From a virus (Duplodnaviria; Heunggongvirae; Uroviricota; Caudoviricetes), in the IMG/VR virus record IMGVR_UViG_3300021426_000084: a stretch of 64,000 nt of DNA; one strand, 5' to 3'. Of this stretch, positions 17,682-40,169 are shown one piece after another; the stretch's first letter is position 1; each line of letters begins with the position of its first letter. A model generated the notes under the pieces. It saw only the letters and a list, made by a program, of their open reading frames with translations, searched no databases and was not told the origin of the DNA. The position numbers and the translations under genes were made by a program.

Positions 17682-18420
17682 GCAGCAAAATGCCGAACGT
17701 GCCAGACGGCGCACAGAGGAATTCGAAGCGAACTTTACGCCGTCAATGAACTATGCGTTGGTCAGCACTACCGTATATGGCGGCAAAGACCAGAATGTCA
17801 TCGGCAACCCATTTACCGATATCTGTGAAGAATTTGAAGTGGTACAGATGTCTACGGCCGAAGCCATTTATGAGCTAGGGAATAACAACTGCATTGCTCT
17901 GAATTTCGCGTCATATAAAAATCCGGGCGGCGCGTACCTGAATGGCAGCTGCGCGCAGGAAGAATCTTTGTGTCACGAAAGCTGGTTGTATAACATTTTG
18001 GCTCGATTCCAGAGCTATTATGACTGGAACAAAAAGAATCTGAATCGCGGCTTATATAAAGACCGCGCTCTTTACACGCCGGATGTATATTTTAGCGACG
18101 GCGAAAGAAATGCCATAGCTGACATTCTTACCTGCGCTGCCCCGAATCGCAGTATCATTGTCAAAGGATACACCAACTTTACGGAGGAAGAGAACTATAA
18201 AGTTCTGCATGACCGTATGCTGTTCATGTCCAAGATTTGTTCTTTGAAAAAGAAGGACACACTTATTCTCGGCGCATGGGGATGCGGCGTGTTTAAACAG
18301 GACCCGAAAATTGTGGCAAGACTCATTCGCAATACTACATGGCGCGGCGTAAAGAAAATCGTACTGGCTGTCATTGATAAGCCAACGTATGAAGTATTCA
18401 AGAAAGTTTTTGAGGAATAA
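17662..18420 (+). CDS. PARG-like macrodomain protein (DUF2263/TIGR02452-type ADP-ribose hydrolase fold)
   Basis: NFASYKNPGGAYLNGSCAQEESLCHESWLY matches the bacterial-type PARG signature (G-G..QEE..C(R/H).S.LY); ATG 17662 after gcaggagggg. Confidence 0.6.
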   Translation: MNYWSAKQQNAERARRRTEEFEANFTPSMNYALVSTTVYGGKDQNVIGNPFTDICEEFEVVQMSTAEAIYELGNNNCIALNFASYKNPGGAYLNGSCAQEESLCHESWLYNILARFQSYYDWNKKNLNRGLYKDRALYTPDVYFSDGERNAIADILTCAAPNRSIIVKGYTNFTEEENYKVLHDRMLFMSKICSLKKKDTLILGAWGCGVFKQDPKIVARLIRNTTWRGVKKIVLAVIDKPTYEVFKKVFEE

Positions 18421-20156: not shown

Positions 20157-20540
20157 ATGTTATCGGTAAATCTTAATACAAAGACAGCCAAGAAAAACGG
20201 GAAGGTCATTATTAAAAACGGTATTCCACAAAACGGCTATAAAATAAGCGAAGCTCCGATATCGTTTGAAGATATTGAAACTTTATATACTGCTTATAAA
20301 CATTCTGTTCCTAATGGAATGCGACGGCAGCGCAAATTCTTTCGTGCCCTGTCAGAGAATGAGTTAAGCACGGAGGACTTAATTGCCGGCGAAAATCGAC
20401 AGAAAACAAAAGAAAGGCTGGAAATGGCTATCTTGGAAGGCGGCCTCAATGGCAGCCTGAAATGGCCAGATAGCACGAAATGGTTTTGGCAATCAGAAAA
20501 AGACCCAGATTTAATTGTATTGAAAAAGTGGATTGCTTAA
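20157..20540 (+). CDS. hypothetical protein
   Basis: 127-aa ORF with SD aaaggagc. Confidence 0.55.
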   Translation: MLSVNLNTKTAKKNGKVIIKNGIPQNGYKISEAPISFEDIETLYTAYKHSVPNGMRRQRKFFRALSENELSTEDLIAGENRQKTKERLEMAILEGGLNGSLKWPDSTKWFWQSEKDPDLIVLKKWIA

Positions 20541-20552
20541 GGAGAAAAAATA

Positions 20553-21644
20553 ATGAATGAAAATTTACATGTATACTGCCCGAAATGCGGTTCTGAAGTA
20601 ATGCTGGCCGATGAAAACGGCAAGGCAATTATGCCGAAAAGCGGTGATTTCTTTCTGCGGTTAAAGAATAACGACCCGGAAAAGGCTAAGAGACTGAAAA
20701 ACGTCATCAATGCCCTGTACGGTAACGACGTAGAGGTTAAGAATGTTGGTGTAGTAACGGAAAAATCCCGGCATCGCAATCCGTTTACAGATTTAGCAAT
20801 GTTTCATAAGGAACAGGACAAAGACGATATTGAAGAATCCATCCTGAAAGATGGTGATATCAATTCAAAGTTCTTGTGGCGCCGCTGGATTATGGCGCAA
20901 GTTCTTCGCCATTACAAAACTGCTGATGGTCAGGAAAATTTCCACAATTATTTCATTAAGAGCAAGAGTATGCACTATGTTTTTAAAACCTGTATCGCAG
21001 AAGCTAAAGCGTTGAGCAATCTCTCTGGCCAGGAACTGGAAGAGCGAAAAATGTTCTTCAACGGAGAGGTCTTTCAGCAGATCATTGGAGATTATTTTAC
21101 GCAATATCGCAATGAGATTACGGCGAAATTGGAAGAATTGGATCAGGCCAATCGCCGGACTGTCCTTAAAAAGGGCTTCAATGCAAAATTGGAAGACACC
21201 TTTGTTATCGGTAAGAAAGCTTACGGGGAATGTGACGTTGTGGTGGCTCAGAAATACATGGATGATTTCATGTATAAGATGACAACGTTTGTAAACGATG
21301 ACAACTACAAAGCCGTGGCAAAAACGATGTTCGAGATTTACCTCGCATTTCCGCCGTTCAAACATTGCAAAAAGAGCAAGGCTTGGATGGACGCATTTAA
21401 GGGCGCCGGCGCATTCTATACCTTGGACAATCTGCTTCGTTGGCATCATTGCACAATTCGTGACGAAAATACCAATGAAGTATATTCCGGCGACCGTGCG
21501 CTGAAATATCTGCGTGACAGAACAAAGGCTCTGCCATCCAAAGAATACTATAAACTCTATGCCATTATGAAGCGTGTGGTTGAGGAAAACAACTTTGATT
21601 TCAACAAGCGTATGGAAGAACTGCGCAATAAGGGGATAGCGTAA
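20553..21644 (+). CDS. hypothetical protein with N-terminal zinc ribbon
   Basis: CPKCGSEV; 363 aa; SD aaggagaaaaaat. Confidence 0.55.
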   Translation: MNENLHVYCPKCGSEVMLADENGKAIMPKSGDFFLRLKNNDPEKAKRLKNVINALYGNDVEVKNVGVVTEKSRHRNPFTDLAMFHKEQDKDDIEESILKDGDINSKFLWRRWIMAQVLRHYKTADGQENFHNYFIKSKSMHYVFKTCIAEAKALSNLSGQELEERKMFFNGEVFQQIIGDYFTQYRNEITAKLEELDQANRRTVLKKGFNAKLEDTFVIGKKAYGECDVVVAQKYMDDFMYKMTTFVNDDNYKAVAKTMFEIYLAFPPFKHCKKSKAWMDAFKGAGAFYTLDNLLRWHHCTIRDENTNEVYSGDRALKYLRDRTKALPSKEYYKLYAIMKRVVEENNFDFNKRMEELRNKGIA

Positions 21645-22006
21645 TGCGTACAATAATAGCGGGCGGCCGCGACTTTACCAATACAAGTGTAGCCTTTGCC
21701 TGTTTGGAGTCATTGGTCGAAGCCGGAGATATCATTATCTCCGGCCATGCCTCCGGCGCCGACCATATCGGAGAACTCTATGCGGAGAAGCATGGATTAG
21801 AGTGTGAGCTCTATCCGGCAGACTGGAAAACTTATGGCCGGGCGGCAGGGCCTATCCGCAACGAGCAGATGGCCAAAGTAGCCGACAGACTCATTGCTTT
21901 TTGGGACGGTAGGTCCCGTGGCACAAAGTCTATGATAAACCTGGCCAAGAAGCATGACTGCGAGGTAATCGTGTTTGATTACTACGGAAACGAGGTGTCG
22001 ATATGA
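21644..22006 (+). CDS. SLOG-fold protein (DprA/Smf/LOG-like Rossmann domain, DUF2493-type)
   Basis: IIAGGRDF...SGHASGADHIGE...GPIRNEQM...FWDGRSRGT pattern. Confidence 0.45.
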   Translation: MRTIIAGGRDFTNTSVAFACLESLVEAGDIIISGHASGADHIGELYAEKHGLECELYPADWKTYGRAAGPIRNEQMAKVADRLIAFWDGRSRGTKSMINLAKKHDCEVIVFDYYGNEVSI

Positions 22007-22380
22007 TTGATACAATAAAAGAAGTGCTCGAAAAAGAGCTGGGGGAAAAATTAAACATCTGCGGTGTCGAAATCCAAAATGGTGAATACTATGCAGAACT
22101 GGAATTTGGCAGTGATGCCGGCGAAGACTTTGTTTTCGATGTTTGGTTTGACGGTACATGGAATGATTTTGTAACAAAGTTCCGTCAATATGCTGCCGAT
22201 TTCGACCCGGATGAACATGCTGCAATGTGGGTTGACTCACGAGGGAAAAATGGTGTTCCGGATTCCATAAGAGCACTCATTAACGATGCAGATAGTATCC
22301 AAGAATATCTCGAACAGTTTTCAGATGGCCTGAAATACGACAAATATGATGACGAATGGAACGAGGTAGAACAATCATGA
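22003..22380 (+). CDS. acidic hypothetical protein
   Basis: 125-aa ORF with ATGA coupling. Confidence 0.5.
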   Translation: MIDTIKEVLEKELGEKLNICGVEIQNGEYYAELEFGSDAGEDFVFDVWFDGTWNDFVTKFRQYAADFDPDEHAAMWVDSRGKNGVPDSIRALINDADSIQEYLEQFSDGLKYDKYDDEWNEVEQS

Positions 22381-22553
22381 AAATCAGCGAAGTAATCAGC
22401 AGCCTCCAAAAATGGAAGAATACCATCGGTGATGCTGAAGTGATGATTGTCGTCGATGATAATGGTTCAACAGCGGCTACATTTGACTACCATTTTGAGC
22501 ATGGCCGTAATCCCTATGGCGATGAGATTCTGGTCATAAACGGAAGGAATTAA
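22377..22553 (+). CDS. small hypothetical protein
   Basis: ATG 22377 overlaps the upstream stop. Confidence 0.4.
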   Translation: MKISEVISSLQKWKNTIGDAEVMIVVDDNGSTAATFDYHFEHGRNPYGDEILVINGRN

Positions 22554-22555
22554 CA

Positions 22556-23002
22556 ATGAAGTATCTATTTCTTGACATTGATGGGGTGATGAACTCCGCT
22601 GCAGACTGGTTCTCTACAAAGCTCATAAGCGATAAGCCATTTGAGCTCCTAAAGAAAATCATAGATGAAACCGGCGCGAAAATCATCTTATCTTCGTCAT
22701 GGCGCGCCGGTTATGAGCGTGGTACTTGTGACCTGCTTAAACAGCGTTTAGCTGAGTACGGTTTATTCATAGAGGATGTAACACCGCAAAGTGGCCGGCG
22801 CGGAAAAGAAATTCAGGAATGGCTTACTGCGCATGACTACGATGAGAATGTAGATACCTTTGTCATTCTGGATGACGAAGATTTCGACATCCTGGCAATC
22901 TATCCAGAGCAGTTGGTTAAGACTGATGCCCTGATCGGCCTATCAGGCTATAACGCTTGGCAATGCATTAGCAAGCTAAATCGAAAGAAGCGAGTTGTAT
23001 GA
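22556..23002 (+). CDS. HAD-superfamily hydrolase-like protein
   Basis: FLDIDGVM motif I; 148 aa. Confidence 0.5.
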   Translation: MKYLFLDIDGVMNSAADWFSTKLISDKPFELLKKIIDETGAKIILSSSWRAGYERGTCDLLKQRLAEYGLFIEDVTPQSGRRGKEIQEWLTAHDYDENVDTFVILDDEDFDILAIYPEQLVKTDALIGLSGYNAWQCISKLNRKKRVV

Positions 23003-23310
23003 ATAAACTTGAAAAACAGTTGGCCTATCTTCGGCCTCCGAAAGAAAATTTAAATCAAGCGAACAAGTTAAGGAAGAAACTGGAAATGGCCCAATTGACT
23101 AAACGTGTTTTGGGCCGCCGCATTTGTTGCGACTACATGTACGACGTCTTTGATTCTACAGGCAAGATAGACGAAGCCGCCCGTCAAATGAAAGGCGTAT
23201 GCGGTACGGTTGAATCTGTGGATGATGCCTGCCAATTACATGTCAAATGGGATAACGGCAGTACGCTGGCTTTGAATCCTGATGTAGACGAGTTTACCAT
23301 ACTGGATTGA
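22999..23310 (+). CDS. hypothetical protein
   Basis: 103-aa ORF with ATGA overlap. Confidence 0.45.
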   Translation: MNKLEKQLAYLRPPKENLNQANKLRKKLEMAQLTKRVLGRRICCDYMYDVFDSTGKIDEAARQMKGVCGTVESVDDACQLHVKWDNGSTLALNPDVDEFTILD

Positions 23311-23311
23311 G

Positions 23312-23653
23312 GTGGAGAATTTGAATAGATTAAAAGCTTTAAGAGTCGCCGCTGGTTACAACAGCCAAAGAGAACTGGCGGCGGCAATTAGCCGTTGGGC
23401 CAATGGAAATACAGACAAAGAAGTTTCTTACGCTTCAATCGCACGCATGGAAGCAGGAAGCGATAATCCATGGTGGAGCAATGTAAATGCGCTTGCTCGT
23501 TTCTTCCAAGTATCAGCCGATTATCTCATGGGTACAGAGCGCGAAGGAGTAAAACCTGATTCTGGAACAAGGGAAGAAATCCGGTTGGCAGCGGAAGATT
23601 TCGCACATAGACTTGCCGACATTCTTGGAGGACAGCCCTGTGAGAATCGGTAA
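23312..23653 (+). CDS. XRE-family helix-turn-helix transcriptional regulator
   Basis: QRELAAAISRWANG..SYASIARMEAG HTH pattern. Confidence 0.55.
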   Translation: MENLNRLKALRVAAGYNSQRELAAAISRWANGNTDKEVSYASIARMEAGSDNPWWSNVNALARFFQVSADYLMGTEREGVKPDSGTREEIRLAAEDFAHRLADILGGQPCENR

Positions 23654-23858
23654 CGCAATCATCAATCCGCGGCATATATGTTATGCGGAGATAATCGAAA
23701 ACAATGATTGGCTTGGTATTCAGGACGGCTATCTTATCCAGTGTAAAATGGATGATGGCAGAAAAATCAAGATAAAAGATTCAGATGGCAGAGGCTTTTC
23801 TTGTCTTGAAGCCGACGATGCTCTGGATGAGATTAATGATGCATTGGAGGAAGAATAA
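23640..23858 (+). CDS. small protein, paralog of 47758-48027 (RIGNAxINPR family)
   Basis: GTG 23640 with GGAGGA 7 nt upstream; shared RIGNA(I/V)INPR...CKM.DG..I.IKDS.G motif. Confidence 0.45.
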   Translation: MRIGNAIINPRHICYAEIIENNDWLGIQDGYLIQCKMDDGRKIKIKDSDGRGFSCLEADDALDEINDALEEE

Positions 23859-23861
23859 CAA

Positions 23862-24203
23862 ATGGCAATTAAACAGATTGCAGAACATATTTACGAAGCT
23901 GATGAAGATACGACACGAAAAGAACTAAAGGAAGCCGGCTGGATTTCTTCTGTTAAACTTTCACGTATGGAAGATATGTGGGCCGTCGCGTTATTGAAGC
24001 GGGATATCAATGGTCTTGCAGCGGCAGGCTTAGAAATTCTCAGCTTTCATGGTGGCTGCGGTAAAAAGTATTACTACCACAAAGAACAGATAGTGCCGGC
24101 GCTTCGGGCACTGCAGGAATATCTGTGCAACAGAGATATTAACCATGCGTATGAAACGAGGATAGAACGCATAAGAGACTTTTGGAGGCAGTATAATGGC
24201 TGA
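23862..24203 (+). CDS. hypothetical protein
   Basis: 113-aa ORF. Confidence 0.5.
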   Translation: MAIKQIAEHIYEADEDTTRKELKEAGWISSVKLSRMEDMWAVALLKRDINGLAAAGLEILSFHGGCGKKYYYHKEQIVPALRALQEYLCNRDINHAYETRIERIRDFWRQYNG

Positions 24204-24696
24204 GATATACAGAGATAAGCGCGGCTGGCTTTATACGATTGATAAAGCATTTGCAATATATACCGCACTTTATCGTAAGCCCGAACAAGATAAATGGCAT
24301 GTAGCAAGATCTGTACTAACTAGCTCTAACTTTAAAGAAGTAGAAGTGATGCTTATGTCGAAGTTAGACCTTAGTAGTACCGGTATCGTGGGTTGGTATA
24401 ATGGCGAGAACACTCGCCCCAATCCTATTCTGACTGAAGAAGGCTTGCGGCACATCAATGAGTATATCCGTGAACTCTGGGCCAAGCGGATAGAGCTCCT
24501 AGACGCCAAGAAAGATACTGCTGATGATACTGAAATCGCTACCGTAGCTGACATCTTAAGTGATATGGACAAATATACCGTTAAGGACGTAGGCGATGGC
24601 TTGGAGTATCTGAATGGCTGGCCTGTAACGGACAATTATGAAGCCGACTATGCGCTGCGGCTGGAATACGGAAAGGATTTTACGTGGTTAAAATAG
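24196..24696 (+). CDS. hypothetical protein
   Basis: 166-aa ORF. Confidence 0.5.
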   Translation: MAEIYRDKRGWLYTIDKAFAIYTALYRKPEQDKWHVARSVLTSSNFKEVEVMLMSKLDLSSTGIVGWYNGENTRPNPILTEEGLRHINEYIRELWAKRIELLDAKKDTADDTEIATVADILSDMDKYTVKDVGDGLEYLNGWPVTDNYEADYALRLEYGKDFTWLK

Positions 24697-24730
24697 AATG
24701 CTATAATAAAGGCTAGAAAGGGGGATGTAG

Positions 24731-25372
24731 ATGGTTCGTTGGAAAAATGGTTTCCCAATCATGGCCGATATCCTTAACCCATCTAAGCATGGCAAAGCTT
24801 GTCTGGAAAAGTACAGGGTTAACGCATGTGATTTCCGTGCCCGCTTTTACGACCATATGGAAGTTGGCGAAGAATATATGGTGCTCAAAGTAGACGAGCA
24901 GCTTATGATGAGCGACACACCAATGGAGCGCGAAAGCAACCAGAAAATCTTAGACATGGCTTATGGAGATGTCCTGATTGGTGGGCTTGGACTTGGGATG
25001 ATACTTTTTGCATTGCAACAGAATCCGGGCGTAAAATCTATTCATGTTATTGAACAAAGCGCCGACGTTATTGAGCTAGTCGGTAAACAGATTGTCCATT
25101 TATTGGATGTTTCTTTACCAGCTGTACATATTGTGCAGGGGGACGTATTCGATTACCCCGCTGCTCATCCCACGGAACGTTACGATACTATCTATATGGA
25201 TATCTGGCCATATTACGGGCATGGAATGCAAGATGATATGATAAAACTCAAGCAGGCATATGCGCCTCTGCTTAAGAAAGACGGCTGGTTTGGCTGCTGG
25301 CAGGAAGATATTGCATTTGGAGCAGAATATTCCATGGAGAATGAGAGCTATTATTTTGGCGCTATGAATTGA
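24731..25372 (+). CDS. class I SAM-dependent methyltransferase-like protein
   Basis: VLIGGLGLGMI glycine-rich motif I and YDTIYMDIW motif. Confidence 0.5.
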   Translation: MVRWKNGFPIMADILNPSKHGKACLEKYRVNACDFRARFYDHMEVGEEYMVLKVDEQLMMSDTPMERESNQKILDMAYGDVLIGGLGLGMILFALQQNPGVKSIHVIEQSADVIELVGKQIVHLLDVSLPAVHIVQGDVFDYPAAHPTERYDTIYMDIWPYYGHGMQDDMIKLKQAYAPLLKKDGWFGCWQEDIAFGAEYSMENESYYFGAMN

Positions 25373-25624
25373 AAAACTCTCATGAGAAGGATAGCCAGAC
25401 TTGTTATTCTTTAACAACGCAAAAGGCCGCCCGAAGGCGGCCAGCTGCGTGTTAGATAATAAAAAAAGAAAATATTTCAATCCACTCCCAGTTTTCATAC
25501 TGGGAGACAACAACCGTGATGGTTGATGCCTTAATAGTAGCAAATATTTTTCTTCTTGTCTAGCAGGAATCCCAAAGGTTACGCTAGAATAGATTTAAGA
25601 AGTGCACAAAAGGAGGAATTAGTT

Positions 25625-25930
25625 ATGAAAAAGATTATTAACGGCAAAAAATATGATACCGAAACAGCCAAAGAACTCGGCAGTAGCTGGAATGGCTTAA
25701 GCCCGACAGACTTCAACTACTGTTCGGAAAAGCTTTACCGGAAAAAGACCGGCGAGTTCTTCTTGTATGGGAAGGGTGGTGCGCGCTCCCAGTACGCAGA
25801 ACAGGTAGGGAATGCCTGGTGCGGTGGCGAAGACATCACTCCCTACACAGAAGACAAGGCTAAACGTTGGTGCGAGAACCACTTATCTGTGGACGAGTAT
25901 GAAGCTATCTTTGGTGAAGTTGAGGAGTAA
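25625..25930 (+). CDS. small protein, paralog of 27320-27610
   Basis: MKKIINGKKYDTETAK... and shared ending EYE(A/S)IFGEVEE; SD aaaaggagg. Confidence 0.55.
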   Translation: MKKIINGKKYDTETAKELGSSWNGLSPTDFNYCSEKLYRKKTGEFFLYGKGGARSQYAEQVGNAWCGGEDITPYTEDKAKRWCENHLSVDEYEAIFGEVEE

Positions 25931-26407
25931 CTGCTTAGTAACTGAAAACGTACTCAGGTATGTAAAAATGTGTAGCAATATGCTAAAGACTCAAGAAATC
26001 CATTGAGTTAGTTCGTGCTGACTTTATAGCAGTCGGAATGGCTGGAAATAAACCAGAGGCGGTTGAAACAGTCCGTCTAACTACGGGATAGCACCCTGAT
26101 GGTAGCCGTTGGACAGTGGTAAATGCGAGAACCAAGCAAAGGCTGGCGAGCCTAAACGCAAAACAATATCACGAAAGGAGAAAGCTACTAGATGTAATCG
26201 GCAGAATATCATAAACAAGATACTGTCGATATGTACCGATGGCTAGTCGGGAATTTACGTCTTCGGAGTATCACACAAACGTTAGTAGCCTGTCTTTCGG
26301 GACGGCGAGAACGGATACGATGAACAAGGAACTACAAATCGTGAGATTGTAGCGATACATCTTGATATAGGCATATTTGTCTATATTTTAAGTAGCAGTA
26401 ACTGCCG

Positions 26408-26953
26408 ATGGGGAACTATAGTTATATGTGCAAGTGCGGACAACCAATCCGCGCAGGTGAAAAGGTTCACCTCATGCATGTTCGCCATGGAGAAGTGTTG
26501 GGTCACGCAGAAGGCGAGTTTGACGGCTATGGCAGTGTCATAGAAAACGAAGGTTTTAATAATGCCTCATTTGATAAGTGGGATGGCGTTAGCAAAAATG
26601 ACCCGAATTGCCATGATGAAATTATGAAATCTCGTTACAACTTCAATGATTCTGAACATGTATGCCAAGAGAAAATGAAAATTTATCAAGACGAACCAGT
26701 CAGCATTGAAGAATATTGCACTGCATTGAGTATTGCAACAAAATGGCCCGATGCAAATATCAAAAGTTTCAACGACGCTTGCGCAGCTTACAGAGAACTG
26801 GAAGATGCACCTAAAGTTACTCCGCAGAGCGGCGTGGCAGCTTATCATAAAGCTTGTTATGATGAAGCCGTAAAGCAGAATGCTGTAGATATTGTTCCAT
26901 CTGAAGCCGACCCGAATCAAGGTTGGGGAGAGCCGCAGAAAAGATTCATGTAA
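26408..26953 (+). CDS. hypothetical Cys/His-rich protein
   Basis: 181-aa ORF. Confidence 0.45.
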   Translation: MGNYSYMCKCGQPIRAGEKVHLMHVRHGEVLGHAEGEFDGYGSVIENEGFNNASFDKWDGVSKNDPNCHDEIMKSRYNFNDSEHVCQEKMKIYQDEPVSIEEYCTALSIATKWPDANIKSFNDACAAYRELEDAPKVTPQSGVAAYHKACYDEAVKQNAVDIVPSEADPNQGWGEPQKRFM

Positions 26954-27043
26954 CGCAAAAGGCCCCCAAAAGGGGGCCAACTGCGTGTTAGGTAACAAAA
27001 AAAGAAAGTGTTTCAATCCACTCCCGGTCAAAGCCAGGAGACA

Positions 27044-27205
27044 AGCCGCCTATTCGGCGGTAAACATGATATTCCAAATTCATAGATTTCTAAGCCGCCT
27101 ATCCGGCGGGAAAAAGGAACCACCAATTTGATAGATTTCTAAGCCACCTACTCGGCGGTAAACAAAACCAAGAAAAATATAAATTTCTAAGCCGCCTATG
27201 CGGCG
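27044..27205. repeat. four direct repeats of a 16-bp GC hairpin (gccRcctaYNcggcgg) at exact 49-bp spacing; copies 2-4 share the 5' flank atttctaa
   Basis: copies at 27044, 27093, 27142 and 27190; AT-rich variable spacers of about 25 bp. Confidence 0.7.
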
Positions 27206-27319
27206 GTGAACTGGAATATCATGATATAATGATATCAGAAATTTTTTTCTTTGTCTAGCAGGAGTCTTAAAGGATATGCTAGAATAAAGAAAGAAGATTG
27301 TGTAAAAGGGGGATTAATT

Positions 27320-27610
27320 ATGAAGAAGATTATTGGTGGCAAAAAGTATGATACGGATACGGCGAAGCGCCTGGCAGGTTACGACAACATCGGAAAGAAA
27401 AATATCGCTTCCTGTACCGATTTTGATTATTGGTGTACTTCGCTATACCGGAAGAAAACCGGTGAGTATTTCATTTACAAGCAAGATACAGCTTGGAATG
27501 ATAGAGAAGAAACCATTACCCCCGCTACGGAGGAAGAAGCCAAGGCGTGGGCTGAAAATTACTTAGACGGCGATGAATATGAGAGTATTTTTGGTGAAGT
27601 AGAAGAATGA
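27320..27610 (+). CDS. small protein, paralog of 25625-25930
   Basis: MKKIIGGKKYDTDTAK...; duplicated upstream region as well. Confidence 0.55.
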   Translation: MKKIIGGKKYDTDTAKRLAGYDNIGKKNIASCTDFDYWCTSLYRKKTGEYFIYKQDTAWNDREETITPATEEEAKAWAENYLDGDEYESIFGEVEE

Positions 27611-27777
27611 ACATTTGTGATATATGTTTGATAATAGAGCTAGGGCTGCTTGGGATGATAATGTTAATAACTATAGTAGCAGCTGTAATAGCAACAATAG
27701 ACAATTGGCTGGACGGCGCAATCCGCAAAAAGCTAAAAAAGATGATAGATTGATGTAACAAGGAAGGCGATTTTTAA

Positions 27778-28281
27778 TTGCAGATAAAAATAGCAGGAAT
27801 TCAGGACGATTCCGTAGTAGACGGTGAGGGCATCCGCATGACCGTGTTCGGGCAGGGATGCCCTCACCATTGTCACGGTTGTCACAATCCCGCCACATGG
27901 AATAGCGCGGGCGGCTATGTAACAACTACAGAAGAAATTCTGGAGCAATACAAGAACAATCCGTTACTGGATGGTATGACATTTAGCGGCGGCGAACCAT
28001 TTATACAGCCATTTGCTTTTATGGAGCTGGCTGATAAGGTGCATGAAATGGGCGGCAATGTGTGGTGCTATACTGGATTTACATTAAACCAGCTTATGCA
28101 GTATGGCTTCGGCCCACATAAGTTGTTACTGGATAAGATAGATGTACTGGTAGATGGCGAATTCATGGAGGAGCTGAAAGACCTTACACTGCAATTCCGT
28201 GGCAGCCGCAATCAGCGCATCTGGAGGCGCCGGGGAGATACCTGGAGCTTATGGATGAAGGAAGGAGTAATGGCAGCATGA
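27778..28281 (+). CDS. nrdG: anaerobic ribonucleotide reductase activating protein (radical SAM)
   Basis: VDGEGIRMTVFGQGCPHHCHGCHN cluster motif; 167 aa. Confidence 0.7.
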   Translation: MQIKIAGIQDDSVVDGEGIRMTVFGQGCPHHCHGCHNPATWNSAGGYVTTTEEILEQYKNNPLLDGMTFSGGEPFIQPFAFMELADKVHEMGGNVWCYTGFTLNQLMQYGFGPHKLLLDKIDVLVDGEFMEELKDLTLQFRGSRNQRIWRRRGDTWSLWMKEGVMAA

Positions 28282-28439
28282 ATAAAGGTGGGTTCTCCTG
28301 GAAAACTTTTCTTGGTATTACAAATGTTAAACGACAGTTCGCCCAAAAAACAGGTATTCCGACATCAAAAACGGGGCTGGAAGCAAAAATCGGCAGATTG
28401 GTTCTACAGACAATATTCGGCACCAAGAAAAAGTCTTGA
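28278..28439 (+). CDS. small basic hypothetical protein
   Basis: ATG 28278 after gaaggagtaa. Confidence 0.4.
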   Translation: MNKGGFSWKTFLGITNVKRQFAQKTGIPTSKTGLEAKIGRLVLQTIFGTKKKS

Positions 28440-28509
28440 CTAAAATGTAAGAAGAGACTATACTTTGGTGTAAGTAGTAATTAAGTAGTTTTTTTTTGGA
28501 GGATTCTCG

Positions 28510-29352
28510 ATGAAAATAGTATATCAACCGGGCGACGAAGTATATTGCGTAAACAATGGACGCATTTTTACCGTTTCTGCTTATAACGAAACGACGGGGA
28601 TGTATAACCTTAAATCTGGCAATCTTGATGCAAATGATATTCCAGAGGAATGTCTTACGCCTGTAATACTTAACAAAACAGACGTGACAAGATGGCTTGG
28701 CGCTCAGTTTGGTCTGGACAGTATGTTGTTTTGGCCTAAAAGCAGCAACATCCCGAAAACGAAAGACGACTTATTAAGAGAAGGGTATACTCTTGAGGAT
28801 ATCCTCTGCAATGACTGTGAATTAGTAAAAGTTCCTGTTACGTTATGGAAGAAATGCGAAGCCGCAGGCATTGTGGCAGATAAAGAATTTTTCATTGATA
28901 GTGGTGCTGAGGGGGAATGTCCGCGCGGCCCATTTGTTTTCCGTAATGGAATTTTATCTAGCGCATTAAAACCTGAAATCGAGTACAATATTGATTCGCT
29001 TGTAAGCCTGATTGAAGCAGGGGAGAAGGTCGTGGATGCTGAAAAAGCTCTGGGGAAGATCGGATTTATCCGTCCTGACCGCAAGAGCAGCGACATGGCT
29101 ATAATCCGGGACAATACTCAATCTAAAAAGAATGACACTGTATCTGACACTAACAATGCTTCTTACCCCCGTAAGGCGTCAGAAGCACATAGCCAGGCCG
29201 CAGAGATTTTTAGCGACTACAATACTGGCGAATACTCTATAAGAGCTCTCGCTAAAAAATACAATACCTCTATATCGACAACCTATCGCATCATCAAGAA
29301 AGAACAATCCAATCTCCGCTCTCGCATACAGAGTGCCATCGATGCTGCGTAA
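28510..29352 (+). CDS. hypothetical protein with C-terminal HTH-like segment
   Basis: 280 aa; SIRALAKKYNTSISTTYRIIKK resembles an HTH. Confidence 0.5.
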   Translation: MKIVYQPGDEVYCVNNGRIFTVSAYNETTGMYNLKSGNLDANDIPEECLTPVILNKTDVTRWLGAQFGLDSMLFWPKSSNIPKTKDDLLREGYTLEDILCNDCELVKVPVTLWKKCEAAGIVADKEFFIDSGAEGECPRGPFVFRNGILSSALKPEIEYNIDSLVSLIEAGEKVVDAEKALGKIGFIRPDRKSSDMAIIRDNTQSKKNDTVSDTNNASYPRKASEAHSQAAEIFSDYNTGEYSIRALAKKYNTSISTTYRIIKKEQSNLRSRIQSAIDAA

Positions 29353-29429
29353 CTCCCTCTCATCATTTTTTCGCCCGCTTCGCGGGCAGTTGTCTTGTTT
29401 TCTTTGTCTTTTTCTATGGAGTACTCATT

Positions 29430-29777
29430 ATGCGATATTTTAACGAAACTCTCCTCGTTCGCAGCCGCAATATTGCTGTTAATCGCGTTTACGGATTAAC
29501 GTATCGCGATTTAAAAGCAGGGGACTGTTATACATTTTATGGGTTTGGAGCAACCGGGCGTGTAACTCTTAAAGTCAATCGGCATCCAGGATATGACCCG
29601 GCAACAGGAGATAACGATTATGTGAGCATCACAGCAACGCACGAAGACCTTTTTAACGAAAAGGTAACGAGGGTGTATGAAAAGGAACAGATCTGTATGG
29701 CAAACGGAGATTATCAAAAAGAGCTGGAATATATCTGGGAAAAGTATTCAAAGCCCAGATTATCCGAAAATATGTAA
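29430..29777 (+). CDS. hypothetical protein
   Basis: 115-aa ORF. Confidence 0.5.
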   Translation: MRYFNETLLVRSRNIAVNRVYGLTYRDLKAGDCYTFYGFGATGRVTLKVNRHPGYDPATGDNDYVSITATHEDLFNEKVTRVYEKEQICMANGDYQKELEYIWEKYSKPRLSENM

Positions 29778-30289: not shown

Positions 30290-30364
30290 TCCCCAGTAGC
30301 TCAGCTGGTAGAGCATCTGACGATTAATCAGGTGACGCAGGTTCGAGTCCTGCCTGGGGAGCCA
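30290..30364 (+). tRNA. tRNA, anticodon unresolved (loop CGATTAA lacks U33)
   Basis: 7-bp acceptor stem tccccag/ctgggga, D-arm gctc/gagc, T-loop ttcgagt, CCA encoded. Confidence 0.6.
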
Positions 30365-31018
30365 ATTTAATATTAACAAACAGAAAACTATGGCAAAGCA
30401 TACCTCGGTTATAAAACGCAATATCATGCGTCCGAGAATGGCCCCGTAATTGATACTGACAAACTGCAGTAGATATGCCTGCAGCGAGTACGTCCTTTCT
30501 TAGCGATAAGAGTAGGGTGATGCGTAAAGTGTAAGCGCATGTATCTTGAGGTTATGTGCATGCAATGCCGAGCGTTAAAGCAGGAACTGATAGGGTTTCA
30601 TAAGTGTATGAGTACAAATGGTGTGCTCCGCTGCCGCCAGTAAAGACTAAAGCGTGATAAACTTTAGGTACACGAGGTATTTATCAAGATGGAACTTTGC
30701 CGTGATGTCTTCAAAAGAGACTATAACTGTCAGTCGCCGTATGAGTAGCCCAAGGCAATGATACAGATCAAGTATGTAGCTTTATAGCAATCTATAATTC
30801 TGAATGACGGGTGAAAGTTGGAAGTCTTAATCTTCTCGGAGCTAGAAAGAGGCAAGAAGCGCGTGTCGACGGGCGCGTTGCTCAGACTTGTCTTCTCCGT
30901 GGCTGAATAAATGCAGAGCATCAAGTTGTGTACAGGGAAACCTGATGTTTTGCCGTAGTTTTGTGTTTGTTAATAACACAACTAAAAATGCGCCCAAGCG
31001 GCGCGGTTACAATTTTGT

Positions 31019-31094
31019 GTACCTTTGGTGTAATTGGTAACACGGCAGTCTCCAAAACTGTAAGATGTTGGTTCGAGTCCAGCAGGGTATGCCA
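31019..31094 (+). tRNA. tRNA-Trp (CCA)
   Basis: cloverleaf with anticodon loop ctCCAaa; CCA end. Confidence 0.75.
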
Positions 31095-31099
31095 TCTAT

Positions 31100-31173
31100 G
31101 CCGGTATAGCTCAATGGGGATAGAGCACCGAAACGTAACCTCGGCGACTCAGGTTCGAGTCCTGATACTGGCT
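31100..31173 (+). tRNA. tRNA or tRNA-like, anticodon unresolved (loop ACGTAAC)
   Basis: acceptor gccggta/tactggc, D-arm gctc/gagc, T-loop ttcgagt; no encoded CCA. Confidence 0.45.
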
Positions 31174-31556
31174 TAGCTAATTTAGTCTTACTGGTCTGAT
31201 CAACCGGTTAGGCGAAACACTACATGTAGTGCCGCGTAAAAGCGGTGTCCTTCGCGGTCGAGGGACATTAAAATTGACGGCCGCCTGTTTACGTCCCAGT
31301 ATCAGGTTAACGTCTGATCAGAGGCATACATTTTTCAGGGCGCCCACCGCAGCGCGGCACCACCGTTAATTATACGCCTAATGCCAAATGCGGTTAACTT
31401 GAATAATCCCCGTAAGGGATTAGATATATTGTTGTTAGACCCAGACGGTCGGCGACAAAGCACTGGTCACTATCCGACCACTCCGTAACTAAAATCCGTC
31501 AGCTACCGGAGGGAAACAGGACAGGTCCTGGGTAAGACATAACTGCCCACGCAAAA

Positions 31557-31632
31557 GCGGAAATAGCTCAGTTGGTAGAGCTTCTGCCTTCCAAGCAGAA
31601 TGTCGCGAGTTCGAGTCTCGTTTTCCGCTCCA
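31557..31632 (+). tRNA. tRNA-Gly (UCC)
   Basis: acceptor gcggaaa/tttccgc; anticodon loop ctTCCaa; CCA. Confidence 0.75.
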
Positions 31633-31638
31633 TATTAT

Positions 31639-31725
31639 GCCCCTGTCGCATAGAGGCCGATTGCACCGGTTTTGTAAACCGGTTCCGAAAAGGACACGTC
31701 AGTTCGAATCTGACCGGGGGCTCCA
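31639..31725 (+). tRNA. type II (long variable arm) tRNA, anticodon unresolved (loop TTTGTAA, apparent UGU)
   Basis: acceptor gcccctg/cgggggc, T-arm gtcag-ttcgaat-ctgac, 15-nt variable arm, CCA. Confidence 0.5.
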
Positions 31726-31773
31726 TAAAAACAAAAAAGCAAGACTATAAAAACATAAGGAAGGTAACAAACA

Positions 31774-32046
31774 TTGACATCTCTTGAATGGAATGACCTT
31801 GCCTCAAAATTCTATAGCTTCAAATCCGAGGCAGAAAAACATGGTTTCTATGTGCCAGAACTGGCCGGCATGGAAAACAGCCTGAATATCATTCGTCCCT
31901 ACCAGGAAAACGAAGAACTGCATAAGAAAACGGCAAGTGGATTTGTATCTCGTATGCAGAGTAAGGCTGATGATGTTAAGGCCTGGGCGTTGGCAAAGTT
32001 CAGCGCGCCGAAGTATAATGACGATGATGAGCTGGTGCATGCCTGA
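31774..32046 (+). CDS. hypothetical protein
   Basis: TTG start after taaggaaggtaa. Confidence 0.5.
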   Translation: MTSLEWNDLASKFYSFKSEAEKHGFYVPELAGMENSLNIIRPYQENEELHKKTASGFVSRMQSKADDVKAWALAKFSAPKYNDDDELVHA

Positions 32047-32288
32047 TGTTTAATTTTTCTAAATACGATATGCTGACTCTACTTGATGAGTATGTCACAT
32101 ACATTATGGCAACATGCGCAATTTTTACGGTAACAATCTTCGTCGCAATGGTAAAACATTCCCTTGAAACGGCGGTGATAATCGCTATCATGATTTTTAT
32201 CATAGGTCCAGCCGCGGGTTTCTTAGGTAGAACTATATATGACTTTATTTTAGAGAGGTTTGGTGGCAATGGTAAAGACTTATTCTAA
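32046..32288 (+). CDS. small membrane protein
   Basis: two hydrophobic helices. Confidence 0.45.
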   Translation: MFNFSKYDMLTLLDEYVTYIMATCAIFTVTIFVAMVKHSLETAVIIAIMIFIIGPAAGFLGRTIYDFILERFGGNGKDLF

Positions 32289-32513
32289 CACTAAAAAGGC
32301 AAAAGCGCTGTTTTATCCGAAGGCTAAGTGTTGCGCACACACCAATGTTATGATTGGCGGCGGCCGTTTGATGGGCCGCTACGTAGGATCGACCGGTAAA
32401 CGATGATAGCGTTAATGCTTGCTGTCGTGGTCTGGTGTTGTACGGATAACGGCTACGCAGCATTAGCAGCGTTCTTTGCTTGCTTAGCTTTGGAAAAATA
32501 AATGAGGAAAAAC

Positions 32514-33140
32514 ATGAACAATTGTCTTAAAAAGGAAATTATCTGCAGCTATAAACCTGGCGATTGGTTCGATAGGATTCCACTTGCGCATCTTTGCGAC
32601 GGCGGTATAACAGCAATCAATGTAGACCGCCGTTTTGGAAAGTCCACATTCGTCGCCAATGCAGCCAAAAAGATTTTGTCGCAAGATATGGCTGACATCA
32701 TTGTTGTTGAGTGTGGCGGCAAAAACAGAATAAAACTCATGAAAACGGTCTTTAAGGAAGTTTTCGGCGATAATTTCGAAAAACAGTACCCGCAGATTGA
32801 GATAAGGCCTCATGGCAATAGAGCACTAAGTAAGCGGCGTACAGTAATATTTATTGATGAATTTTCGTATACGGCAACCGACGATGACATCCATGAAATT
32901 CTGAAAAGCGAGCTCATCAGCGATGCACAAACCTGGATTCTTCTGGATACTTCTTATGAAGGTTCAACCGATATGAAAGACAAGAATCCGTTCGCTGGCT
33001 TACTAGAAATGCCCTTCGTAAGAACCTACGAAGTGGTTGGTCGCATTCCTGAAGAATGTCTCGCTTATTATAGCGATGAACAGCAGCAAGCGATTAAAAA
33101 GCGTCAAGAAGCATTTCATCTCCAGTGTTTCATGTTTTAA
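32514..33140 (+). CDS. P-loop NTPase-like protein
   Basis: Walker A-like VDRRFGKSTF and Walker B-like VIFIDEF. Confidence 0.5.
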   Translation: MNNCLKKEIICSYKPGDWFDRIPLAHLCDGGITAINVDRRFGKSTFVANAAKKILSQDMADIIVVECGGKNRIKLMKTVFKEVFGDNFEKQYPQIEIRPHGNRALSKRRTVIFIDEFSYTATDDDIHEILKSELISDAQTWILLDTSYEGSTDMKDKNPFAGLLEMPFVRTYEVVGRIPEECLAYYSDEQQQAIKKRQEAFHLQCFMF

Positions 33141-33223
33141 ACAAATCCCCCTCCATGTGACCGGCTAGGACGAGGCCATAGAATATCGTCCACTTTATTA
33201 AAATTCTGTTATAGGAGAGAAAA

Positions 33224-33451
33224 ATGACAGTATATATGGTTATTCACCAAACTTTGTGCGATGATTATGACCAGGACGTTATGGGTGTTTTTTCAAACGC
33301 CGAAGCCGCCCAGGCGTGCTATGACGACTGGATTAATGAATACGGCCTTGAGGGTTGTGACAATGGCGCGTATTACAATGATGGTGAACATCGCTTAGAA
33401 ATTCACTCATATAAAATTGAGGAAACTTACGAGCGAGATTCAGATTTTTAA
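33224..33451 (+). CDS. small acidic hypothetical protein
   Basis: 75-aa ORF with SD aggagagaaaa. Confidence 0.45.
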   Translation: MTVYMVIHQTLCDDYDQDVMGVFSNAEAAQACYDDWINEYGLEGCDNGAYYNDGEHRLEIHSYKIEETYERDSDF

Positions 33452-34102
33452 ATTTTGCGACCGACACTAATGTCGGCCATAAAACATGCGTGACCTGACT
33501 GCTGGTTGCCAAGAGAACCATGCAGCGAATAAAGAATGCGAAGAAGACTGACGTCATTCATCGCAAGCCTCGGAGAGCCCTGAAAGAAACTTGGCCTGTG
33601 GCAGAAATCTCCAATGAGGACACCGTAAACGCAAAATGAATTACGGTACAATCCGGCCCTAGAGAACAAGCCGGATAGACGCAAAGACCCTTACGGGTCT
33701 GAAAGATTATAGGAATAAGTGGGTCATCACCAAACCACCTATAACTGACGTTAGGCGCAGCGGAAAGACAAGTGCGATAGATGGTATGCCCAAGCCGAAT
33801 AAAAGTGAGGTCGTTCCTTATCGGAGCGAAGAAAAGTAGAGGCTTAGTCAGCACGGCGACAATGCAAAGAAAAGTTCGTGTAAAGCCGCGTTGTAAAATC
33901 AAAAGATTCAGCCCAGACCAGGCTCATAGCAGGAGGGGTTGACGCGCAATAATGACTTCATACCTTCTGGTATGGTCGCTGGACAAGGAAAAGTCTAAAA
34001 ACCCGGCACGAGAGAGGCTACACCGATGCTGAGTAGCTGAGCTGTTTGAGACGAGCAGTCATCCCGTGACGGCAGGATGTAAAATGAAGCCGCCCCTATA
34101 AT

Positions 34103-34185
34103 GAGGCAGTAGCTTAAATGGCTAGAGCAGACGGGAAAGCAAATGGGGCTTTCTTATGATGGTGGTTCGACTCCTCCCTGCCTCC
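34103..34185 (+). other. tRNA-like element (perfect acceptor pair, D- and T-arms, non-canonical anticodon region)
   Basis: gaggcag...ctgcctc acceptor pair; T-loop ttcgact; the middle 33 nt does not form a standard anticodon arm. Confidence 0.4.
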
Positions 34186-34198
34186 CCTATATCATACA

Positions 34199-34269
34199 TC
34201 CCCAAAGCTCCTCCGGCAGGGCTCGTAAGGCTACGGCCTGCGGCGAAGGTTCGAATCCTTCTTGGGGAT
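34199..34269 (+). other. tRNA-like element (acceptor pair plus T-arm, no canonical D/anticodon arms)
   Basis: tccccaa...ttgggga; gaagg-ttcgaat-ccttc. Confidence 0.35.
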
Positions 34270-35996
34270 ATCATGCTCATAGTCTGGGGGACACCGGCCG
34301 GTAGACAGGTTCGATTCCTGTAATGGGCAAAAACAAAATGCTTTCACGGAAAGTGTGCTCACCGCGAAAGAAGTTTTAGCCGCAGCAGACCGCACACCCT
34401 GGTAAATACGGCAAAAACGATGTTTCCCGATATCAAAGAATCGGGCATCAATGACTGTGGATGCGTATAAATAGACAGTCAGCTTGAGTCACCGTGGACC
34501 CCGGATACCCCAAAAGGAGTATGCCGGCTAACGCCTAGCCGAAATGGCGGGCGGCCCTGTGGGGCGCGATCCACGACACAAAAGCTTTCCTGCAGGCGGT
34601 GGGTTAACCTAGCGTATAGAAGGGGCTCCATTACCCCTGAGACAAAAGTCTCGAAGAGATGACCATTGAAGAAGGGTCTCCATTAACCCTGGCTGTAACC
34701 AGAATAGGCCAACCGTGTTTTCGGGCTCGCATCGTTATGAGCGTCCCGATTACCCGGCGCCAACAGCCGAAGAGATGACCTTTATCGGAGCGTTCGCTAT
34801 CGGACAATTACTGGGGAAGTAAGAACTAAAGGCCACGGTTTTTAGCACCCAGAATAACGACGCGAAGGCATTCCTTTCGGTGGAGGTATACCGAAGAACA
34901 ATATGAAACCTGGGCCGTCCCGATAACGCCATAAAGTACAAATGGTAGCTCGGTCAAACGGTAGCAAGGTTGCACCAAGCGTACCTGGATTACCTTCGCC
35001 TGGACGGACTAAAGTACACGGTCTATCAATTTAAGGGCGATAACAGGCACGAAGGCGATTTAGCCCCGGACAAGGCGAAAAACTGTTTAGTAGGCACCGA
35101 TTACTACTTAATAAGACAGTCGGGAACAGTGAAGACTCACTCTAAACAGGCTAGATGAGCATGGGTATCGCCCATGCCGAAGTTATCGGCCACTTCGCTG
35201 AAGACGACCGATGTGTTTGCGGGACGACCGCAACTGGGAGTGCATCCTCTCAGGATAAACCTGCAGAAGATACCTGTCCGAAACAGGATAGGGAAACCGG
35301 TGGCCAAGGCAATAATCCGGTAAACACCGATATATGTAGGACTCCCCTGCGGGGCGAGTAAGTTCATCGGTGGCCGCAAAAAGAAAACATCTCATAAGCG
35401 AGAGTCCGGTCATGAAAGCTAATCCCTTTCAGGCTCTCCCGATGCTGCTTATCTTTTCGGGCATTAAAAACACCAGACCTCGTAAGCGAAGACAGAGAGG
35501 ACGCTCTCGTTCAAATCGGTGAAGCTTGCCATCACCTATGTACAAAAAGCCTTGCCATGTAGAGCGAGCATGATGCTGCTGTAGAGTAGGTCGGGCATCA
35601 AAGATTTTAGACCTCGTAAGCAAAGACAGAGGAAACGTCCTCGTTCAAATCGGTATGAAGCTTACCCCAGATGACGGGCATTTGCCAAAGCTTGGATGGG
35701 TTAATCCGACATAGCGCTGCTACACTTCGGGCGCTAAATTAATCACACAACTGCTTGTATAAGTGCGTGTATGACTGCCGTGGAGGGGCTGCGCGTGATG
35801 GGAGAGGTTCTGCCTGATAGTGACCAAAAGAGTTCAACTACCGTGAGTCCCACGGGGAAACAACAAGCCCTGTACCTTACGAAACAGGCATGGCGCCGCT
35901 TTATGATAGTTGTTCGGGCGCTAAAAACCTGCACTGGCAACTTCATCTTTCATTGTCAGTAAAAGCGTTTGATAACCCGACCCGAAAGGGTCATAT

Positions 35997-36399: not shown

Positions 36400-36582
36400 T
36401 CGTTTCAACGAGGTTAGCGTCTCGAAGAAGCGGATTGAGAAGCTAAAATCAGCCATATCGGCTGATTGAAGTAAATCTGTGATTCTGCAGAATCTCTGGA
36501 AGCTTGCGCCAGACTTGGAATACAGCAAGACAGGTTTACTTCAGTGAACCGATATGGAAAGTAAAAATAGGGGGTACATATC

Positions 36583-37472: not shown

Positions 37473-37618
37473 TTAATCTGCTTGATTTTATTATATACTT
37501 TTTTATTTTCATCACGTTACTGTGTATAATAAAAGCCACTATTGTTCTTGGCTTCACAATAACTTTTCCGGCAATTTTGATGTTTGTAGCTATTGTTTTG
37601 GCAATGATGGAGGAAGAA

Positions 37619-37818: not shown

Positions 37819-37845
37819 TGAGATATTAAAAGGGGATAGAATTAC

Positions 37846-38417: not shown

Positions 38418-38484
38418 ATAAATAATGAATGATGAATGGACGTAAAAGCTAACAACAGATAGCACTAGATGAGGAGTGATAAGC

Positions 38485-40160: not shown

Positions 40161-40169
40161 TATTATTAT

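Follow-up and report, generated by a model that had tools for sequence, protein, structure and literature searches.

A putative crRNA-like anti-CRISPR RNA array in a phage genome, with guides matching cas promoters of Selenomonas ruminantium

Results

Four repeats of type I-F on the minus strand

In a 64,000-nt stretch of a Caudoviricetes genome (IMG/VR record IMGVR_UViG_3300021426_000084; hereafter, the window), we found an array of four hairpin repeats at about 27 kb that is very probably a viral anti-CRISPR element (CRISPR, short palindromic repeats that are clustered and regularly interspaced). Specifically, we propose that it is a minus-strand array of CRISPR RNA (crRNA)-like anti-CRISPR RNAs, or Cracrs, directed against the type I-F system of Selenomonas ruminantium and fused to a type I-C unit; both its class and its targets were deduced from sequence comparisons. 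The coordinates of all features are given in Table 1.

Tandem Repeats Finder placed the array at 27043-27211 (period 49, 3.5 copies, score 180), and a repeat search gave four copies with successive spacings of 49, 49 and 48 bp. A first-pass annotation, made from the letters of the window, had therefore counted the periodic hairpins correctly, and its exact 49-bp spacing is off by one base in the last interval. The core pattern occurs three times, always in the array and nowhere else in the window, against 0.00 occurrences expected from 100 shuffles of the window. A sensitive Rfam scan then matched all four copies, all of them on the minus strand, to RF01317 (CRISPR-DR4), which is the type I-F direct repeat (consensus GUUCACUGCCGcACAGGCAGCUUAGAAA). 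R4 alone exceeded the gathering score of this family (46.4 against 35 bits), and its match covers model positions 1-28. When all of the window was scanned against Rfam by E-value, no further CRISPR-repeat-like element was detected.

The repeat unit lies on the minus strand and has a length of 28 nt, not the 16-24 nt that had first been described. The earlier objection that the repeats are too short and degenerate for CRISPR also fails, given that all four match the family: on this evidence the array repeats are type I-F CRISPR repeats, and the short part is the spacers, at 20-21 nt instead of the usual 32 nt. These spacers had been described as unique and about 25 bp long. They measure 20, 21 and 21 nt, and two of them (Sb and Sc) have TCTATnAAnTTGG in common, so that they are not fully unique. 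A complete repeat, such as R4, has a 5-bp stem closed by a 5-nt loop and ends in the 8-nt CTTAGAAA handle. The hairpin of R1 is intact and supplies the 3' hairpin for guide Sc; its own 3' handle is missing because R1 runs straight into an I-C repeat, the start of which stands in its place. The order on the minus strand is thus R4, Sa (20 nt), R3, Sb (21 nt), R2, Sc (21 nt) and R1.

Table 1. Features of the array, the adjoining I-C unit and the paralogous cassette in the window
Feature	Position	Strand	Description
Array promoter (predicted, sigma-70-type)	27229..27257	minus	-35 TAGACA 27257-27252; 17-nt spacer; TG-extended -10 TATCAT 27234-27229
R4	27184..27211	minus	GTTCACCGCCGCATAGGCGGCTTAGAAA; complete 28-nt type I-F repeat; RF01317 46.4 bits
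Guide Sa	27164..27183	minus	TTTATATTTTTCTTGGTTTT, 20 nt
R3	27136..27163	minus	GTTTACCGCCGAGTAGGTGGCTTAGAAA; RF01317 30.8 bits; G-U pair in the stem
Guide Sb	27115..27135	minus	TCTATCAAATTGGTGGTTCCT, 21 nt
R2	27087..27114	minus	TTTTCCCGCCGGATAGGCGGCTTAGAAA; RF01317 31.3 bits
Guide Sc	27066..27086	minus	TCTATGAATTTGGAATATCAT, 21 nt
R1 (terminal pseudo-repeat)	27043..27065	minus	GTTTACCGCCGAATAGGCGGCTT; RF01317 19.0 bits; handle missing
I-C-like pseudo-repeat	27010..27042	minus	GTCTCCTGGCTTTGACCGGGAGTGGATTGAAAC; 7-bp stem including a G-U pair, then ...GGATTGAAAC handle
I-C guide	26981..27009	minus	ACTTTCTTTTTTTGTTACCTAACACGCAG
Intrinsic terminator (predicted)	26957..26980	minus	GGCCCCC-TTTT-GGGGGCC then TTTT; hairpin 26978-26961
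Paralogous cassette without I-F array	25421..25562	minus	promoter, I-C pseudo-repeat, I-C guide, terminator
25.4-kb promoter (predicted)	TAGACA 25562-25557, TACTAT 25539-25534	minus	
25.4-kb I-C pseudo-repeat	25508-25474	minus	RF01322 20.0 bits
25.4-kb I-C guide	25473-25445	minus	ATTTTCTTTTTTTATTATCTAAC...
25.4-kb terminator (predicted)	25444-25421	minus	

To characterize the stems, we aligned 23 repeats, namely the four of the array and 19 related ones taken from host loci and other mobile elements. Standard pairs were found in 115/115 stem cells, including 4 G-U pairs and 10 doubly changed cells. The observed covariation score was reached by none of 500 shuffles, and slid registers paired 20-57% of the cells. 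Given that G-U pairs, such as the one in the stem of R3, would be A-C mismatches if read on the plus strand, this favours a minus-strand RNA over a DNA site.

The first-pass annotation had also suggested replication-origin iterons or a partition site, and operators of the divergent promoter would be a similar explanation. The regular spacing of about 49 bp, the intergenic position and the nearby promoter are consistent with such protein-binding sites in DNA. However, no rep or par gene is adjacent (the neighbours are a methyltransferase gene, small unknown open reading frames (ORFs) and nrdG), the cumulative GC skew has no inflection at 27 kb, the repeats belong to a known RNA family and their stems show strand-specific G-U pairs as well as compensatory changes, and the spacers have specific host targets, as described below. 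We consider this explanation to have almost no probability.

We also searched one genome per species for CCGCCGNNTAGGCGGCTTAGAAA and obtained at least 120 stretches. Among the matches listed, about 30 were canonical arrays of the Selenomonadaceae with a 60-bp period, from Selenomonas ruminantium, S. ruminis, Anaerovibrio, Schwartzia and Pectinatus, and these carry the CCGCC/GGCGG repeat variant. The remaining stretches listed came from assorted Proteobacteria and Desulfobacterota.

Each guide pairs with a different csy promoter allele

Type I Cascade flips positions 6 and 12 (and 18) out of the duplex. We searched for targets as a CC protospacer-adjacent motif (PAM) followed by the spacer, and scored positions 1-17 with 6 and 12 left out, which gives 15 non-flipped positions. 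All three guides reached 15/15 in this way, each at the -35 box of a csy promoter. The target of Sb, CC-TCTATAAAATTTGTGGTAATTATTGAC (PAM-target), lies at L034:2740 in S. ruminantium RUG12654 and extends into the -35 TTGACT of the csy promoter, and that of Sc, CC-TCTATAAATTTTGAATAAATATTGAC, lies at L064:7077 in S. ruminantium UBA3715. For Sa, the best score among the initial 127 loci was 12/15; after more csy1 upstream regions had been sampled via Csy1 homologues, its target, CC-TTTATATTTTTATTGGTATTGAC, was found upstream of csy1 in L192 (rumen metagenome ERZ931398), the Csy1 of which is 93% identical to that of L034. The pairing of Sa with this allele is 18/20 overall, with mismatches only at 12 and 18.

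The guide-target mismatches of all three guides are confined to positions 6, 12 and 18. A score of 15 was reached by 0/600 shuffled guides in 903 kb, and in a cross-table of 4 guides and 11 promoter alleles, every guide had a single allele with which it scored 15, its scores with the other alleles being 7-14. Given that the 15 constrained positions are kept while 6, 12 and 18 vary, we take this pattern as a signature of selection on target pairing. By these matches, the three phage guides cover three csy promoter alleles that are found in different strains. A search of the spacers against host genomes, which the first-pass annotation had proposed as a check, was decisive. The annotation had offered a CRISPR-like element, a small-RNA cluster or a decoy array, which was the right direction and missed both the minus strand as the functional strand and the guides to host cas promoters; it was thus partly right, in that the element appears to be an array of small, crRNA-like RNAs aimed at the CRISPR system of the host.

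The loci L034 and L064 have the same order, namely a hipA-like gene, a host mini-array (PsiR1-PsiS-PsiR2), the CC and target, TTGAC(-35)-17-TATAAT, csy1-4 and the CRISPR array, and the Csy1, Csy2, Csy3 and Csy4 proteins matched Pfam with E-values of 4e-88, 8e-84, 3e-141 and 8e-54. The I-F targets thus adjoin the host CreR mini-array, and the guides are alike: the host CreR reads TCTATTAAATTTGTGGT and phage Sb reads TCTATCAAATTGGTGGT, for a target of TCTATAAAATTTGTGGT. In the S. ruminantium-type I-F loci L034 (1454-2800), L184 and L185, it is a hipA-like kinase gene and the CreR mini-array that precede the csy operon, not cas2/3. We also found a further csy promoter allele (L184) that pairs 15/15 with the guide of a viral contig (L003/L007); the unit on this contig has two repeats, a terminator and a promoter that reads perfectly as TTGACA-17-TATAAT.

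A genuine phage mini-CRISPR, which would use host Cas proteins against competing phages or plasmids or cleave the host chromosome, would also have bona fide I-F repeats, and the guides do have 8, 4 and 36 matches of PAM plus seed in viral contigs. However, these matches are scattered, have no common context and are close to the number that we estimated to be expected by chance for 17 specified bases; guides targeting other phages were set aside on this ground. Moreover, the spacers are 20-21 and not 32 nt long and resemble one another and the host CreR guides, the complementarity ends at about 17-20 nt, and neither cas1/cas2 nor any other Cas domain was detected in the ORFs scanned, which are part of the ORFs of the window. 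We regard a mini-CRISPR as highly improbable.

The array lies between a predicted promoter and a predicted terminator

We next considered whether the array has the layout of a transcription unit. Within 26300-27900, the top promoter-like site was the array promoter of Table 1, with 10/12 matches and the TG present. The hexamer pair recurs with 17-nt spacing in the 25.4-kb cassette (TAGACA/TACTAT) and in the related cassettes of L130 (TAGGCA/TAATAT) and L146 (TAGACA/TAATAT), and the sequence between the hexamers varies. At the other end, a terminator scan gave an intrinsic terminator with 7 G-C pairs and a T tail on the minus strand only. For the predicted RNA, which spans 27225 to 26950, the folding energy is -103.7 kcal/mol (z = -6.0), and the hairpins of R4, R2 and R1, the I-C hairpin and the terminator all form in this fold. 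These results suggest that the array is bracketed by a conserved minus-strand promoter and an intrinsic terminator, both predicted. Every gene and transfer RNA (tRNA) in the window lies on the plus strand, and the predicted array transcript is antisense to all the genes around it. Because the strand-specific RNA signals are all on the minus strand, we dropped a protein-coding reading (ORF 26892-27131) and also the plus-strand terminators.

A 12-nt perfect inverted repeat (27212-27223 / 27065-27076) would pair the 5' leader of the transcript with guide Sc. Similar small RNAs in L003 and L005 also have stems that close their 5' and 3' ends.

A type I-C unit is fused to the array

The I-C-like pseudo-repeat joins R1 with a 0-nt gap. 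Its ...GGATTGAAAC handle is typical of type I-C repeats, and the layout of the unit is the same as that of the host I-C CreR repeats of L173 and L183. The target of its guide in L183 is TTC-ACTTTATTTTTATGTTAATAATG (also given as TTC-ACTTTATTTTTATGTTAAT), directly downstream of the cas5d promoter TTGACA-17-TATCAT. This pairing is 15/15 at the non-flipped positions, with mismatches at 6, 12 and 18 and then at 19-20. L183 (cas3-CreR-cas5d-csd1), an I-C locus of the Selenomonas type, was retrieved through Cas3 homology, that is, independently of the guide sequence.

The paralogous cassette at 25.4 kb has no I-F array. Its guide pairs 15/15 with TTC-ATTTTATTTTTATATTAAC upstream of cas5d in L173, which is likewise a cas3-CreR-cas5d-csd1 locus, has its CreR on the opposite strand and encodes a Cas3 that is 100% identical to an S. 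ruminantium protein at NCBI. Between the I-C pseudo-repeats at 27 kb and 25.4 kb, two stem pairs are changed, one from A-T to G-C, which is compensatory, and one from G-C to G-U. After each of these pseudo-repeats come a conserved guide and the terminator. Both units therefore combine an I-C-type pseudo-repeat, a guide, a TTC PAM and a target in the promoter region of an I-C cas operon, as would be expected of viral I-C Cracrs.

L173 was found by a metagenome scan for the I-C repeat-guide junction, as were L142, L146 and L155. Of these, L142 and L146 are further phage cassettes, and L155 is a two-guide I-C array of another mobile element, the guide of which, over the first 20 positions, is the same as the 27-kb guide except at 6 and 12.

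From its layout, the 27-kb unit appears to place one I-C guide and three I-F guides under a single promoter, and the 25.4-kb unit would be a small-RNA gene with a single I-C guide. From the zero-nucleotide junction and the common promoter and terminator, we infer that the I-F and I-C guides are co-transcribed. It is rather probable that a single composite transcript addresses two CRISPR types, namely the I-F csy alleles and the I-C cas5 promoter region, and that it would be processed by two unrelated nucleases, Cas6f and Cas5c, so that both systems are shut down across the host population.

Beside each guide-RNA cassette lie divergent small paralogous genes that begin with MKKII(N/G)GKKYDT(E/D)TAK (25626-25930, 27320-27610 and 17241-17681), and such genes also lie beside the cassettes of L129 and L146. 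They had no Pfam match and a weak match to a PHROG of unknown function; MKKIINGKKYDT... is a family among the small ORFs that neighbour the cassettes. The MKKII genes may encode a partner that is co-regulated with the cassettes, for example an anti-CRISPR protein (Acr) or Aca.

The array lies in a variable region

The first-pass annotation had noted that the array is inserted in one copy of a duplicated cassette, and this was borne out: 25416-25492 and 26952-27028 are 87% identical, 25532-25591 and 27227-27286 are 78% identical, and the array is present only between the two halves at 27 kb and absent at 25.4 kb. A metagenome contig, L140 (AUXO011655025.1), is 99.5% identical to 26394-27145. 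Since it was independently assembled, the array is not an assembly artefact. In L130-L132, which are more distant (77%), the R1 hairpin is fused to the I-C repeat at the same junction and the I-F guides are absent. Three further repeat-guide units are present in the window and in L140. Thus, from this comparison, the array lies in a variable region and seems to have grown stepwise by the addition of units.

A 459-bp segment (25935-26393), which holds a RAGATH-18 RNA (26260-26331, 65.9 bits), is missing from the otherwise 99%-identical L140; an indel may explain this, or the segment may be a small insertion that is mobile.

Other mobile elements carry this I-F repeat in several arrangements. 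L002:11380-11560 has three I-F repeats with near-identical 22-nt 'spacers', and L053:1300-1500, binned as Desulfovibrio, has three with near-identical 23-nt spacers. L005:430-680 has two separate single-repeat I-F units, each with its own promoter, and L006:230-320 is a mini-array of repeat, 32 nt and repeat, in which the second repeat doubles as a terminator.

The phage and its host

The features of the window are those of a large phage, here from the rumen, with an anaerobic host. It encodes a PHROG-annotated NAD-dependent ligase, a reverse transcriptase and NrdG, and the RNA genes include at least 15 tRNAs, a transfer-messenger RNA (tmRNA), a ROOL RNA and the RAGATH-18 RNA. Its relatives in IMG/VR are contigs of 147-236 kb. 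A near-identity search for close relatives of the 22-32 kb region among 50,697 phage records returned only tRNA matches, and no relative of the flanking 181-aa protein was found in viral contigs. The repeat and the guide matches together point to S. ruminantium as the host.

Several other features of the window were recorded. The region 30290-42476 is dense in RNA genes, with the ROOL RNA at 30380-30963 (216 bits), the tmRNA at 35997-36399 and the tRNAs (at least 15), and two of the tRNA anticodons are of the suppressor type, tta (39861-39953) and cta (40170-40246). A protein with a microbial-type poly(ADP-ribose) glycohydrolase domain (17644-18420) is encoded directly upstream of the reverse transcriptase (18438-19706), and this pair may be a counter-defence or diversity-generating module. 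A pair of 133-nt direct repeats (46179-46311 / 46562-46694) is 76% identical, with its members 383 bp apart, and at 43535-43575 there is a tandem repeat with a unit of 11 nt in 3.7 copies.

Discussion

How the array would act

Transcription of the array, Cas6f processing, complex assembly and repression are all proposed here by analogy with the I-F systems in the cited papers. In an infected S. ruminantium cell, host Cas6f would cut the base of each hairpin and release three RNAs of 48, 49 and 49 nt, each consisting of an 8-nt CUUAGAAA handle, a guide and a 20-nt hairpin. These RNAs would assemble shortened Csy (I-F Cascade) complexes, and each guide would pair with one allele of the csy-operon promoter over about 17 nt from the CC PAM, overlapping the -35 box. 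Pairing this short would permit binding and not Cas2/3 cleavage, so that the complex would repress csy1-4, and the array RNAs would also dilute the immune crRNAs. The I-C unit and its 25.4-kb paralogue would act likewise on the cas5-cas8c-cas7 operon via Cas5c and I-C Cascade. The guides mimic the host autoregulatory CreR RNAs, which are located immediately upstream of each target.

Comparison with Cracrs and host CreR RNAs

Cracrs have been described as crRNA-like RNAs that are encoded by phages and plasmids in imitation of host CreR/CreA (10.1101/2024.10.29.618823). Viral I-F Cracrs mostly have guides of 17-21 nt and mature RNAs of 46-49 nt (49 nt for CracrIF2), compared with the 32-nt spacer of a crRNA; they enter Csy complexes that contain about four Cas7f subunits, bind to promoters of cas or creT via a PAM and partial pairing without cleavage and repress transcription, and they also compete with crRNAs for Cas proteins (10.1101/2024.10.29.618823). 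They often occur as multi-guide arrays against variants of one subtype, the guides of one array being always of one type (10.1101/2024.10.29.618823).

The array in the window resembles them in nearly every respect. It lies on a mobile element, as the phage features indicate, and outside a cas locus, with no Cas domain in the ORFs scanned. Its PsiR-PsiS-PsiR layout is made from I-F repeats, with four RF01317 matches on one strand and a stem variant common to the I-F arrays of the Selenomonadaceae. Its guides of 20, 21 and 21 nt and predicted RNAs of 48-49 nt are in the range of viral I-F Cracrs; all three guides combine a CC PAM with PAM-proximal 15/15 pairing to the -35 region of a csy promoter, mimic host CreR and serve several alleles of one subtype. 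The differences are that the host here is a Negativicute (Selenomonas), whereas the acrIF24-linked I-F Cracrs were named from beta- and gamma-proteobacteria; that no acrIF24 is nearby; that the relatives of the carrier are contigs of about 200 kb or more; and that a type I-C unit is joined to the array without a gap. The Cracr class is described only in a 2024-2026 preprint, and since that preprint reports a single type for every array, the composite I-F/I-C layout is a new variant.

Host CreR units of the S. ruminantium I-F and I-C loci share with the phage array the repeat family, the handle, the guide seed and a target beside or overlapping the promoter. In contrast, there is one host unit per locus, the first repeat of which is divergent (CCGTC/GACGG stem) and the target of which follows it directly, whereas the phage has three tandem units for three alleles, on a virus, with their own promoter and terminator. 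Canonical I-F arrays, and phage-borne mini-arrays with normal spacers such as that of L006, share with the array in the window the sequence and structure of the 28-nt repeat, the degenerate terminal repeat and the AT-rich upstream region. However, the spacers in the window are 20-21 and not 32 nt long and show relatedness both among themselves and to host CreR, their targets are host cas promoters with partial pairing, and there are no adaptation or effector genes.

Evidence against, and other explanations

Several observations weigh against the interpretation as a Cracr array. Of 2163 spacers in the retrieved host I-F arrays, none matched the window (the best was 23/32 without a PAM). Neither AcrIF24 nor any other Acr of solved structure was found nearby in a PDB sequence search with the 280-aa helix-turn-helix protein and the concatenated ORFs of 20157-29777 (from which NrdG and the 280-aa protein were excluded), neither of which gave a match. 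The phage guides are not shorter than the host CreR guides, which we counted as 19-24 nt in S. ruminantium-type I-F loci, and the trend in the preprint, which is linked to AcrIF24, is the opposite. The minimum-energy fold draws R3 into an alternative pairing. The I-C pseudo-repeats match Rfam RF01322 weakly, with 16.7 bits at 27 kb and 20.0 bits at 25.4 kb against a gathering score of 45. Finally, the closest relative, L129 (NrdG 95% identical), has no array; it has only the I-C cassette, and the whole 25680-27761 segment is missing, so that the array is dispensable for the phage lineage.

This absence from the closest relative, together with the truncated R1 and the degenerate 5' ends of R2 and R3, would also be explained if the array were an inert remnant, that is, a fragment of a host CRISPR or CreR that was gained by recombination and is now decaying. 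However, each of the retrieved host loci has one CreR unit and none has three in tandem, the array guides serve three different alleles, the array is placed precisely between a conserved promoter and terminator, and the hairpins, handles and guide positions 1-17 are all intact. An inert remnant is therefore quite improbable.

The main rival is a pure decoy of the Racr type, in which the repeats would soak up Cas6f and Cas7f and the promoter matches would be relics of copying host CreR. Racrs are solitary repeats without a guide or functional 5' handle that trap Cas6f and Cas7f in a complex without Cas5f and Cas8f, and they are documented for I-F systems (Camara-Wilpert et al. 2023, PMC10651486). 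The array repeats mimic host repeats, and, like RacrIF1, the array would be a phage small RNA to which Cas6f binds, which Cas6f cuts and which competes with crRNAs. The single R1 hairpin of L130-L132 resembles a solitary repeat unit and would fit a Racr, and the near-identical 'spacers' of L002 and L053 are what a sponge would have. However, RacrIF1 has no usable 5' handle and excludes Cas5f/Cas8f, whereas in the array an intact CTTAGAAA handle precedes each guide and complete handle-guide-hairpin units have promoter targets. In addition, the three guides keep the 15 constrained positions with three different alleles and vary freely at 6, 12 and 18. We thus consider a pure decoy unlikely. The decoy and repressor roles would not be exclusive, given that Cracrs also compete for Cas proteins (10.1101/2024.10.29.618823).

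Implications

Interpreted as a Cracr array, the element would add an instance from rumen Selenomonas (Negativicutes), on a phage with relatives of about 200 kb or larger. It also brings to light that the I-F and I-C loci of S. ruminantium carry CreR autoregulatory mini-arrays, and it gives a host prediction for an uncultured phage that is independent of host spacer matches. The predicted RNAs of 48-49 nt may offer compact, ready-made guide scaffolds. Guides for two CRISPR types would be physically fused in one predicted transcript, and the presence of one guide per promoter allele suggests that the phage tracks promoter polymorphism across host strains.

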